Source: a bacterium (GTDB lineage Bacteria > Patescibacteriota > Minisyncoccia > Phycocordibacterales > Phycocordibacteraceae). Taken from it: 64,000 nt of DNA. The translations under genes were made by a program, and so were the position numbers. Each line of letters begins with the position of its first letter. Within the stretch, counting starts at the first letter, position 1. Shown piece after piece: positions 59,999 through 62,083 of the stretch. The stretch spans positions 160,001-224,000 of the forward strand of contig JBBCGK010000001.1 of the NCBI GenBank assembly GCA_037200965.1, in the 5' to 3' direction. A model generated the notes under the pieces. It saw nothing but the letters and a program-made list of their open reading frames with translations. It was not told where the DNA came from and ran no database searches.

Positions 59999-60730
59999 AT
60001 GAACGCTCTCTGGCTTACCCGAATGTGCGCATACAAGCATTCGCGGCACGCGCTTGAGTCCGCTAAGCGCCTGATCGAGCTTAAGATCGTTCGTGAATCC
60101 ATACTCCTTCAGCGATATCGGCTCGCGCCTTTTGTACCGGATTTTTCCGGTGTACGGACGATGCAGGATATCCTCCTCGTCGAGGCGCGGGCCGCGCGGT
60201 ATTTCTGGAAAGCGTTCCGAGACCTGCTTCCCGGAAGAACCAGTTTCCCCGGCAGGCAGCCGGGATCCGATGATCCCGTAAACCGGCTGCTCGACATCGG
60301 ATACCATCATCTCACCGGCATCGTGCGGCGATATCTTGAGGAGCGCGGTGTTTCGGCAGTACTTGGCCTTCTGCATTCGGCGCGCAAAAGTGCGAGCGCG
60401 CCGCTCGCCTACGATTTGGTGGAGATCTTCCGGGCGGATACGGTCGACGCGGAAATCCTTCGGTTCTTCCGGCTTAAAAAGAAGCCTGTGCTGTCGGCAA
60501 CCGCGGAAATCGCCCATTTTCTCCACGAGCTTAACGAACGCCTTGACCGGCCGCACTATCTTAAGAATTTCAAGCGATGCCACGCCTATCGGTATTATAT
60601 GGAGGTGCAGATACTGAAATTCATACGTGCGGTCGATCGCCGGGAACCGTTTTCTCCGCTGTTTCTTCCCGCCCGCCATGACAGCCGCTGCTGCACAAGT
60701 TCAGATACATATGGCACTCCTCCTAACTGA
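59999..60730 (+). CDS. cas1: mini-Cas1 integrase (lacks the N-terminal beta-sandwich domain)
   Basis: Cas1 catalytic-domain motifs: LLVEARAARYFWKAF (E motif), NRLLDIGYHHLTGIV and GLLHSARKSASAPLAYDLVEIFR (H and D/E motifs). Only about 50 aa precede the E motif. No cas2 lies nearby. Confidence 0.7.
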   Translation: MNALWLTRMCAYKHSRHALESAKRLIELKIVRESILLQRYRLAPFVPDFSGVRTMQDILLVEARAARYFWKAFRDLLPGRTSFPGRQPGSDDPVNRLLDIGYHHLTGIVRRYLEERGVSAVLGLLHSARKSASAPLAYDLVEIFRADTVDAEILRFFRLKKKPVLSATAEIAHFLHELNERLDRPHYLKNFKRCHAYRYYMEVQILKFIRAVDRREPFSPLFLPARHDSRCCTSSDTYGTPPN

Positions 60731-60736
60731 GGAGCG

Positions 60737-61780
60737 ATGCGTCAATTCAACATACTGAAGGATACCGAGGGCTGGTTGTATATGCGCGAGCGGAGCATAC
60801 GCTTCCTGCATATGAGGAACAACGACGAGGTGCGGCATCGGGTCAAGGTGCTGGACTTCTGGAAAACGCACGGGGAGCGTGCGGCCAGGGACGCCTTCAG
60901 CGTCTCTCGCCGCACGCTCTTCCGTTGGCAGGCGAAGCTCGACCGCGCGCACGGGAGACTCGACGCGCTCGATCCCAAGTCGACGGCACCGAAGAATCGG
61001 AGGAGACGCATCGTCCTCCCCGAGGTCGAGACGTTCATCCTGAAGGAGCGCGCGGAGCATCCGAGGCTCGGCAAGGCGAAGCTCGCAGCCCTGCTGCGGG
61101 AGGACGGGTACCGGGTATCCGAATCGTATGTCGGGAGGGTCGTCGCGGACCTCAAGAGGAGAGGGCTGCTGCTCCCGCACAAGCCGCTCTCATACTATGC
61201 GCGAAGCGGCACGTATCGGGAGAAGCCCGTATCGAAGCGCACGAAGCTGCGCAGGCGGCACAAGCGGGGCATGGAGCTCGACACCGTCGTCCGCTTCATC
61301 GACGGCGTGAAGCGGTACGTCCTGACCGCCATCGATGTCGAGAAGAAGTTCGCCTTCGCCGGCGCGTATACCGTCCACTCCTCCGCGTCCGCCGCCGATT
61401 TCCTCGCGCGCGTCATCGCGGTGTGCCCCTTCGACATCACGGAGCTCCAGACCGACAACGGCCCGGAGTTCGCCAAGAACTTCGAGGCGGGGTGCCGCGC
61501 CCTCGGCCTCACCCACTTCAATACGTTTCCCCGCAGCCCGAAGATGAACGCGTTCGTCGAGCGGTTCAACCGGACGATCTCGGAGGACTGCATCATGCTC
61601 AATCGGCCGCTCCTGCGGGACGACGTCGCGGCATTCAACCTGAAGCTGGTCGACTGGCTGCTCTGGTACAACGCCCGGCGTCCGCACGAGTCCCTGGGAC
61701 AGGTGCCGCCGCTCCGGTATATACTCTCCTCATTAACGGCCGAGGAGTGCCAGAGGTACTGGACGCGTACAGCTGCTTGA
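60737..61780 (+). CDS. IS481-family (rve) DDE transposase/integrase
   Basis: N-terminal HTH. AIDVEKKFAFAGAY, QTDNGPEF and RPHESLG motifs. Its own GAGGAG RBS starts only 6 bp after the cas1 stop. Confidence 0.8.
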   Translation: MRQFNILKDTEGWLYMRERSIRFLHMRNNDEVRHRVKVLDFWKTHGERAARDAFSVSRRTLFRWQAKLDRAHGRLDALDPKSTAPKNRRRRIVLPEVETFILKERAEHPRLGKAKLAALLREDGYRVSESYVGRVVADLKRRGLLLPHKPLSYYARSGTYREKPVSKRTKLRRRHKRGMELDTVVRFIDGVKRYVLTAIDVEKKFAFAGAYTVHSSASAADFLARVIAVCPFDITELQTDNGPEFAKNFEAGCRALGLTHFNTFPRSPKMNAFVERFNRTISEDCIMLNRPLLRDDVAAFNLKLVDWLLWYNARRPHESLGQVPPLRYILSSLTAEECQRYWTRTAA

Positions 61781-62083
61781 CGCGCCCGCGGAACATGCTA
61801 AGTTGATTTTGAACCGATCTTTGATATGGCGATGAGAAAAAGAAAGGGTGTTTTCGGACATCCCGGCACTTTTTCTCATCCTTGAGACGTTCCGGGACCG
61901 GAGTTATCTCCGAGTCCTAAGGGTCCACCGGCATGCCGGAACGGGACTTCTGCCCTGTAACAGGGCGGCCGCGAGGCCAACAAAACCCCGCTTGTCTTGA
62001 TCACGCCCCCCTGATCTGAACGCGATATATCTTACTCTCTTCGGCCCTCCGAGAGGAGGTGCTACTACTAGAACTGCGCTTAG

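Follow-up and report, generated by a model that had tools for sequence, protein, structure and literature searches.

Several described systems bear on the locus reported here. Insertion sequences (ISs) of the IS481 type carry a single open reading frame (ORF) for a DDE transposase between TG...CA termini (usually TGT...ACA), with terminal repeats shorter than 50 bp, and they duplicate 2–15 bp of target DNA, mostly 6 bp (PMC10045372). The IS1202 group nests inside the IS481 clade (PMC10045372), and a subclass of this group that abuts XerCD recombination sites is described in a preprint (bioRxiv 10.1101/2022.12.17.520857). Among CRISPR systems, types V-C and V-D are cas1-only type V systems without cas2 (PMC6977970). 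The present analysis concerns a 64,000-nucleotide stretch of a patescibacterial genome (the window), in which a short cas1 gene, preceded by the gene of a 573-amino-acid (aa) putative effector and followed by a CRISPR array, is directly succeeded by a transposase gene. A preliminary description of this junction offered two alternatives: either an IS had inserted into the 3′ end of cas1, so that the Cas1 C-terminus is IS-encoded, or an rve integrase is co-expressed with the adaptation module in a minimal CRISPR-associated transposition arrangement. We conclude with high confidence that this is an ordinary multicopy IS481-like element inserted in the tail of cas1, and not a CRISPR-guided transposon.

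The cas1–transposase junction

The features of the junction are as follows, with positions given in the window and other loci and proteins cited by our own numbers (L and P).

59999..60691, plus strand: native part of the short cas1 (residues 1–231, ending RHDSRC), matched by Pfam Cas_Cas1 and TIGR00287
60687..60691, no strand: left copy of the target-site duplication GCTGC, which repeats past the right IS end
60692..61771, plus strand: IS481-like insertion sequence of 1,080 bp, TGCAC...GTACA, with copies in L002, L005 and L006
60692..60734, plus strand: left terminal inverted repeat from gapped alignment, holding 12 IS-encoded Cas1 codons and a stop (60692–60730) and a ribosome-binding site (RBS; 60729–60734)
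60737..61780, plus strand: transposase ORF, 347 aa, identified from Pfam, NCBIfam and its DDE triad
61726..61771, minus strand: right terminal inverted repeat, which falls within the 3′ end of the transposase ORF, from gapped alignment and copy boundaries
61772..61776, no strand: right copy of the target-site duplication GCTGC, matching the left copy
61777..61806, plus strand: displaced 3′ end of cas1 (LTRPRNMLS and the stop at 61804–61806), with TTGAC(G) at 61777–61782 and TAAGTT at 61799–61804, from reconstruction and L154

As read from the sequence, the Cas1-like ORF begins with the ATG at 59999 and ends with a TGA stop at 60728–60730. The transposase RBS, GAGGAG at 60729–60734, overlaps that stop, and the ATG of the rve-type transposase (Pfam domains HTH_32, rve and rve_3) follows at 60737, six bases past it, just as the preliminary description had reported. 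Its further statements, that there is no room for an IS end and that no convincing inverted repeats are present, do not hold, as the left repeat lies inside the cas1 frame and the right repeat in the final 50 nt of the transposase ORF. When the left region is aligned, with gaps allowed, to the reverse complement of 61700–61840, the alignment pairs 60687–60734 with 61776–61726 at a score of 31, compared to 14.9 ± 2.3 for shuffled sequences (maximum 26, n=500), and defines imperfect terminal inverted repeats of about 45 nt. The preliminary description had compared 60640–60740 with 61781–61830, a segment that begins beyond the transposase stop.

Comparison with the three further copies in this contig (JBBCBH010010897.1, 960 kb, of NCBI assembly GCA_037975565.1) fixes the exact ends of the IS, and there all four copies can be counted directly. 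The copies in the window, L002, L005 and L006 differ by 0–1 mismatch and have unrelated flanks, and the span common to all of them, TGCACAAG...GCGTACA, is window 60692–61771. The L002 copy, upstream of secE-nusG-rplK, encodes an identical transposase protein, and those of the L005 copy, near rpsL-rpsG/fusA, and the L006 copy, near an aldolase gene, differ only in their last residues. Relatives in L003 (70% identical, in another genome) and in the metagenomic L131 are likewise 1,080 bp long. A longer element that includes GCTGCTTGAC and the stop codon, as suggested by the 1,093 bp shared by the window and L002 (60689–61781), is excluded by copies three and four, which delimit the element at 60692–61771; the 10 nt common to the right flanks of the window and L002 copies are duplication plus target motif. 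The transposase is a single ORF without a frameshift and has an intact DDE triad (D182, D240 and E275, with a D–E spacing of 35 residues).

Target-site duplications are directly visible at several of the copies. The window copy is flanked by GCTGC, the L006 copy has CATCC on both sides, and the L005 copy has CAACT on both sides once an IS30-like element nested in its tip (L005 4034–5074; 1,041 bp, TA duplication) is removed, which restores GTACA-CAACT. The L003 and L131 relatives are flanked on both sides by CGGGC and AGCTA, respectively, such that five of the eight copies with both flanks available have a perfect 5-bp duplication.

The consequences for Cas1 are seen by removing the element. 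Position 60692 is the first base of cas1 codon 232; residues 1–231 are native, ending in a cysteine (C231) that is invariant in the family, while residues 232–243 (CTSSDTYGTPPN), the stop and the transposase RBS all lie within the left inverted repeat. The Cas1 tail quoted earlier as IS read-through, DSRCCTSSDTYGTPPN, is therefore correct for CTSSDTYGTPPN, which is IS-encoded, but not for DSRC, which is native. Deletion of the IS and one duplication yields Cas1 ...RHDSRC-LTRPRNMLS, with the stop at 61804–61806, and the closest Cas1 orthologue, P0138 (70% identical), ends ...RHDTRC-LTSRKPVLS; many others have RC-LT.... The P0138 locus (L154) shares the rmuC-effector-cas1 synteny, has no IS at the insertion point and is thus an empty site observed directly in an orthologue; it aligns through the insertion point (CGATGCTTGACA... 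versus CGCTGCTTGACG...) and is collinear through a downstream hairpin (window 61831–61880). The first of the two alternatives was thus borne out in every testable respect.

In the sequence of events that we propose, the 1,080-bp IS481-like element (60692–61771) would have jumped into the ten final codons of cas1 and duplicated the 5-bp target GCTGC. Its left inverted repeat would have given Cas1 a stop and 12 C-terminal residues of foreign origin, with the RBS and ATG that belong to the IS directly behind them. The transposase gene thereby gives the illusion of being fused to cas1 without an IS end, and where two ORFs conceal an IS end in this way they can mimic an operon. Past the RC codons, Cas1 orthologues vary in both length and sequence, some ending right at RC, and the match to the core profile TIGR00287 extends to Cas1 residue 218. 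Since orthologues differ in the tail that was replaced, and since a promoter-like site is intact downstream of the IS, the insertion probably has little effect on Cas1 function, and the array is probably functional too.

A Cas1 profile scan of GTDB species representatives returned 21 loci, 19 of them close relatives. An effector homologue is encoded directly beside cas1 in 17 of the 19 (by tblastn), and none of the 19 has an IS481-like gene within 6 kb of cas1, so the adjacency in the window is not conserved. In 12 of these loci the CRISPR array lies 182–276 bp past the cas1 stop; the corresponding distance in the window is 244–278 bp when reconstructed and about 1.35 kb at present. Among 87 Cas1 clusters the only other IS-like tail is that of P0148 (contig L028), where a related IS (69% nucleotide identity; left end TGCATAAGTTCAGATACAT) is inserted after ...RHELRCRC. 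The tails of P0149, P0157 and P0173 (SSLDTTPPS...) were also considered as IS read-through and rejected, being native according to L029 and having no similarity to IS ends.

These comparisons bear on the second alternative, in which the rve protein would be a CRISPR partner and the Cas12-like effector and its CRISPR RNAs (crRNAs) would guide the integrase as a minimal CRISPR-associated transposon (CAST). The transposase RBS overlaps the cas1 stop, such that co-transcription is likely here; however, the IS ends, with 5-bp direct repeats outside them and the left repeat located in the 3′ part of cas1, enclose the transposase gene only and leave the CRISPR module outside, and the identical copies adjoin secE, fusA and the aldolase region, three non-CRISPR loci without cas genes. 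The effector has a Cas12/TnpB fold and lacks the RuvC-I aspartate family-wide, superficially like Cas12k of type V-K CASTs, but there are no TnsC/TniQ-like genes among the genes called, or the Pfam domains matched, in the locus and 10 kb to each side of it, and the transposase is absent from all 19 orthologous loci. The transposase family, with at least 1,590 homologues (mostly 347 aa and on 1.1–1.6-kb contigs), is far larger than the effector family with its 62 representatives, which argues that the IS is independent of the CRISPR system. Insertion sites are set by a common N5-TTGAC (see below) and not by spacers, no spacer match being present near any IS copy in the approximately 10% of the genome searched, and the second cas1-rve adjacency, in L028, is explained by the same TTGAC codons (RC-LT). 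We therefore regard a CRISPR-guided element as extremely improbable. Reading the cas1-rve juxtaposition as an insertion scar, and not as a new CRISPR-guided transposition system, removes a false lead.

Several observations weigh against an IS481-like insertion. First, the best NCBIfam match of the transposase, the IS481 family NF033577 (169.3 bits, E=1e-49), is below the curated cutoff of 224, although IS3 in second place scores only 87.7 bits; the IS481 assignment of the preliminary description stands as the best match and falls short of the cutoff, and by its profile scores the element is a new, distant member of the IS481 family or a sister lineage. Secondly, the L002 copy (9940–9960, 11036–11050) lacks a perfect duplication, being preceded by ACCGC and followed by GCTGC, and shares its 10-nt right flank GCTGCTTGAC with the window copy, so that an extra event is needed; candidates are a slip of 3 nt in GCTGCTGC and conversion or recombination between copies. 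Thirdly, the flanks on the short metagenomic contigs L028 and L144 are unmatched, and these may be chimeric assemblies of a multicopy repeat. Fourthly, no allele of this very locus with an empty site was found, and an exact look-up of the reconstructed, IS-free Cas1 gave no protein.

The apparent chimerism of L028 and L144 also raises the question of whether the IS was misplaced between cas1 and the array during assembly of this metagenome-assembled genome (MAG), as a multicopy IS breaks short-read assemblies and most homologues of this one lie on 1.1–1.6-kb contigs. The window copy, however, has the same 5-bp duplication at both flanks, the flanks when joined restore an in-frame, orthologue-like cas1 end, and the 960-kb contig contains four resolved copies. 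The left junction is moreover reproduced by an independent assembly: the Logan assembly SRR28211700, which may derive from the data that gave the MAG, matches window 58112–60719 at 100% identity, contains the cas1/IS junction and breaks 28 nt into the IS, as expected at a repeat boundary. An assembly artefact is thus very unlikely.

The target site and its promoter-like context

At all 11 independent insertion sites, TTGAC directly follows the 5-bp duplication, always in the same orientation. The sites comprise the window, L002, L006, L005, L003, L028 and five distinct metagenomic sites, the last from a 15-mer right-end scan of metagenome contigs that returned 120 loci, of which 6 (5 distinct) are real IS ends and the rest are chance matches; the metagenomic and relative loci that follow the rule include L043, L062, L092, L131 and L144. 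In nine of the 11 sites a TAnnnT hexamer is present 16–18 nt past TTGAC, as in TTGACA-N17-TATACT, TTGACA-N17-TATTAT and, ahead of secE, TTGACT-N17-TATCAT. The motif belongs to the target and not to the IS, since uninterrupted cas1 orthologues carry TTGAC in their C-L-T codons.

The fixed distance of 5 bp to TTGAC and the single orientation also account for a property of the transposase gene, that its tail and stop are encoded by the target. The ORF exits the IS at ACA (Thr), reads NNN NNT over the duplication and ends at the TGA of TTGAC; in the window the last two codons are from the target duplication and the TGA stop at 61778–61780 is in target DNA. In our proposed mechanism each new insertion would likewise produce a transposase ORF that runs past the IS and the duplication to the target's own TGA. 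Consistent with this, 98 of 120 transposase homologues have exactly two hypervariable residues past a conserved W-T-x-T, and the residues K, E, Q, M and W, for which no NNT codon exists, are never found at the last position (0/98) but occur at the penultimate one (12/98).

TTGAC(A/G/T)-N16–18-TAnnnT overlaps or just follows the cas1 end in 15 of the 19 orthologous loci, compared to a chance expectation of about 0.02 per region, and in several orthologues the cas1 TGA stop is itself inside TTGAC. The site in the window is TTGACG (61777–61782), N16 and TAAGTT (61799–61804); a consensus promoter scan did not call it, with the −10 hexamer matching in only 3 of 6 positions, and the case for a promoter thus rests on conservation in orthologues. 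From this conservation we infer that the cas1 end probably houses the leader or array promoter. The position of the conserved promoter-like TTGAC(N)-N16–18-TAnnnT, just after the invariant RC codons, would explain why the cas1 end was hit here and, independently, a second time in L028.

The recurrence of related ISs at the same cas1 site at least twice (the window and L028), together with a transposase ORF that reads into the promoter-like site, might alternatively suggest that this copy has been domesticated, is no longer mobile, and now drives or regulates the leader or array promoter or extends Cas1. Recurrence is, however, predicted from target specificity alone, and the adjacency is absent in 19 of 19 species-level relatives. 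With 0–1 mismatch to the three other copies and both the DDE triad and the ends intact, the copy bears the marks of recent transposition, and the IS has been recently active. We consider domestication exceedingly improbable.

An oriented insertion next to a fixed motif suggests that the IS lineage would recognise TTGAC, or a promoter complex at TTGAC, and insert 5 bp upstream of it in a single orientation; the transposase or a partner may read TTGAC directly. We lean slightly towards the broader proposal that these elements form an IS481-like lineage, spread across the Patescibacteria and so far undescribed, which homes in on the −35 hexamers of sigma-70 promoters, inserting in one orientation 5 bp upstream of TTGAC(A), with its ORF completed by two target codons and a TGA, and for which the cas1 end is a recurrent landing pad. 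A literature search, itself incomplete, found no account of −35-box targeting or of a target-supplied stop for IS481-like elements. If the proposal is true, targeting of −35 boxes would represent a 'safe-site' strategy for tiny, gene-dense genomes, and nature would offer, in this lineage with its target-supplied stop, a compact case of integration directed to promoters.

The host CRISPR locus and its surroundings

The remaining features of the locus and its flanks are these.

57105..58148, minus strand: IS30-like transposase gene between rmuC and the effector gene, absent in the syntenic L154
58216..59937, plus strand: gene of the 573-aa Cas12/TnpB-fold effector, a conserved neighbour of the short cas1, identified from profile and structure model
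61831..61880, plus strand: hairpin GATGAGAAAAAG...CTTTTTCTCATC between cas1 and the array, conserved in L029 and L154
62084..62619, plus strand: CRISPR array with 7 full 40-nt repeats and a truncated terminal repeat, with a terminator at 62637–62664
63053..64000, minus strand: second, unrelated IS30-like element of 1,041 bp, which runs off the window

Cas1 lacks an N-terminal domain, matching positions 90–253 of the Pfam Cas_Cas1 profile and 90–325 of the 327 positions of TIGR00287, and all 87 Cas1 homologues are similarly about 230–255 aa and start at about profile position 90. The genes called in the window locus and in the 10 kb flanking it include neither cas2 nor cas4. Most loci with the effector beside the short Cas1 (L007–L025 and L154) also contain a CRISPR array.

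The 573-aa effector alone has no Pfam or PDB sequence match, and a word-indexed protein search with it returned only the query, whereas an exhaustive HMMER search of 1.84 billion proteins gave a family of 62 representatives, typically 410–450 aa. A profile of 42 members matches 9yyg, a designed nuclease resembling TnpB, with E=3e-6, and PF12323 is matched by 19 of the 42. In an AlphaFold model of the effector (predicted local distance difference test, pLDDT, 82.5; predicted template modelling score, pTM, 0.74), the top 46 Foldseek matches in the PDB are all Cas12 or TnpB, led by Cas12m2 (8hhl, E=9e-9), Cas12f and ISDra2 TnpB, at 10–13% identity to the solved Cas12m, Cas12f and TnpB structures. 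By motif-based assignment the RuvC-I position is alanine in 31 of the 42 members and never aspartate; the RuvC-II D/E is retained in 38 of 42, and the RuvC-III assignment is uncertain. No CxxC pair (zinc-finger cysteines) is visible past the LE.KA.E.GG segment. The effector may thus bind without cutting, and we speculate that this rare effector together with the short Cas1 may represent a patescibacterial type V variant that has so far escaped description and possibly does not cut.

Spacer 5 (62480–62510) matches the bacterium's own chromosome at 30 of 31 positions (L002 20096–20126; about 10% of the genome searched). The match falls in the 3′ end of a hypothetical gene of 170 aa, some 90 bp upstream of argS, and has a T-rich 5′ flank, GCTTT; with that part of the genome covered, further self-matching spacers are possible. 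Searches of the array region against a phage collection and of three spacers against viral contigs gave no matches. Spacers 1 and 3 (62124–62154 and 62266–62296) are identical, which suggests that a pair of repeat-spacer units was duplicated in the array, and a partial repeat-like stretch, CCGAGAGGAGGTGCTAC, is present at about 62049–62066, just before the first full repeat. The hairpin between cas1 and the array, GATGAGA(A/G)AAAG...CTT(T/C)TTCTCATC, is kept in three loci (the window, L029 at about 2335–2400 and L154 at about 3480–3530) with differing loops, and could belong to a leader or to a small RNA. When 61807–62045 was tested for an anti-repeat or trans-activating crRNA (tracrRNA), the duplex energy was −40.0, compared to −32.9 ± 3.1 for shuffles and −41.6 for the best shuffle, and Rfam identified nothing significant in 57000–64000. 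We note that two by-products of the analysis, the IS lineage with its proposed −35-box targeting and target-supplied stop and this compact Cas12-fold effector family with a short Cas1 and a self-matching spacer, may outweigh the finding with which it began.

Homologues of window genes are annotated as Kaiserbacteria, Adlerbacteria, Paceibacterota and Minisyncoccia (Patescibacteria, or candidate phyla radiation, CPR). The genome, of about 1 Mb, is rich in insertion sequences. The CRISPR locus lies between the two IS30-like elements, which are unrelated to each other and each occur at other places too, and the one at 63053..64000 is the same element as that nested in the L005 IS481-like copy. 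A second IS481-like type, an IS1595-type transposase and an IS200-like Y1 transposase ORF are also present, and IS sites were noted at L002 1922–3856 and 12448–13257 and at window 51544–51900. On the same contig but outside the window, a DnaB helicase gene (L001 14414–17050) contains an intein with a LAGLIDADG homing endonuclease domain (Pfam).

Comparison with known systems

The element shares with IS481-family members, such as IS481 of Bordetella pertussis, a single unframeshifted rve ORF with an N-terminal helix-turn-helix domain, TG...CA termini, imperfect repeats shorter than 50 bp, a short duplication and multiple identical copies. Members of the family range from 0.95 to 1.3 kb in size, and at 1,080 bp the element falls within this range. 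It departs from most IS481 members in having a duplication of 5 bp instead of 6 and a left tip of TGC instead of TGT, and from IS481 as described in its strict N5-TTGAC target and orientation rule and in taking its stop codon from the target. The nearest precedent, compared by description, is the IS1202 group, with its sequence-specific, site-abutting insertion and 5–6-bp duplications; the targets there are xrs/dif-like sites, whereas the element here uses a −35-like TTGAC, and the IS1202 transposases are larger.

For the host locus the closest analogues, again by description, are types V-C and V-D, which likewise have a two-gene module of effector and cas1 without cas2. The V-C Cas1 is known as a 'mini-integrase', and V-D (CasY) is also a CPR system. 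The effector in our locus and its homologues differ from these in size (about 410–570 aa) and in lacking the RuvC-I aspartate. With type V-K CASTs, in which Cas12k is combined with TnsB, TnsC and TniQ, the locus shares a possibly non-cutting Cas12-family effector near a transposase of the DDE/rve fold and an array. Unlike these, its transposon ends enclose the transposase only, TnsC and TniQ are lacking and the linkage is not conserved; a DNA motif sets the insertion sites, and the IS moves independently of the CRISPR locus.

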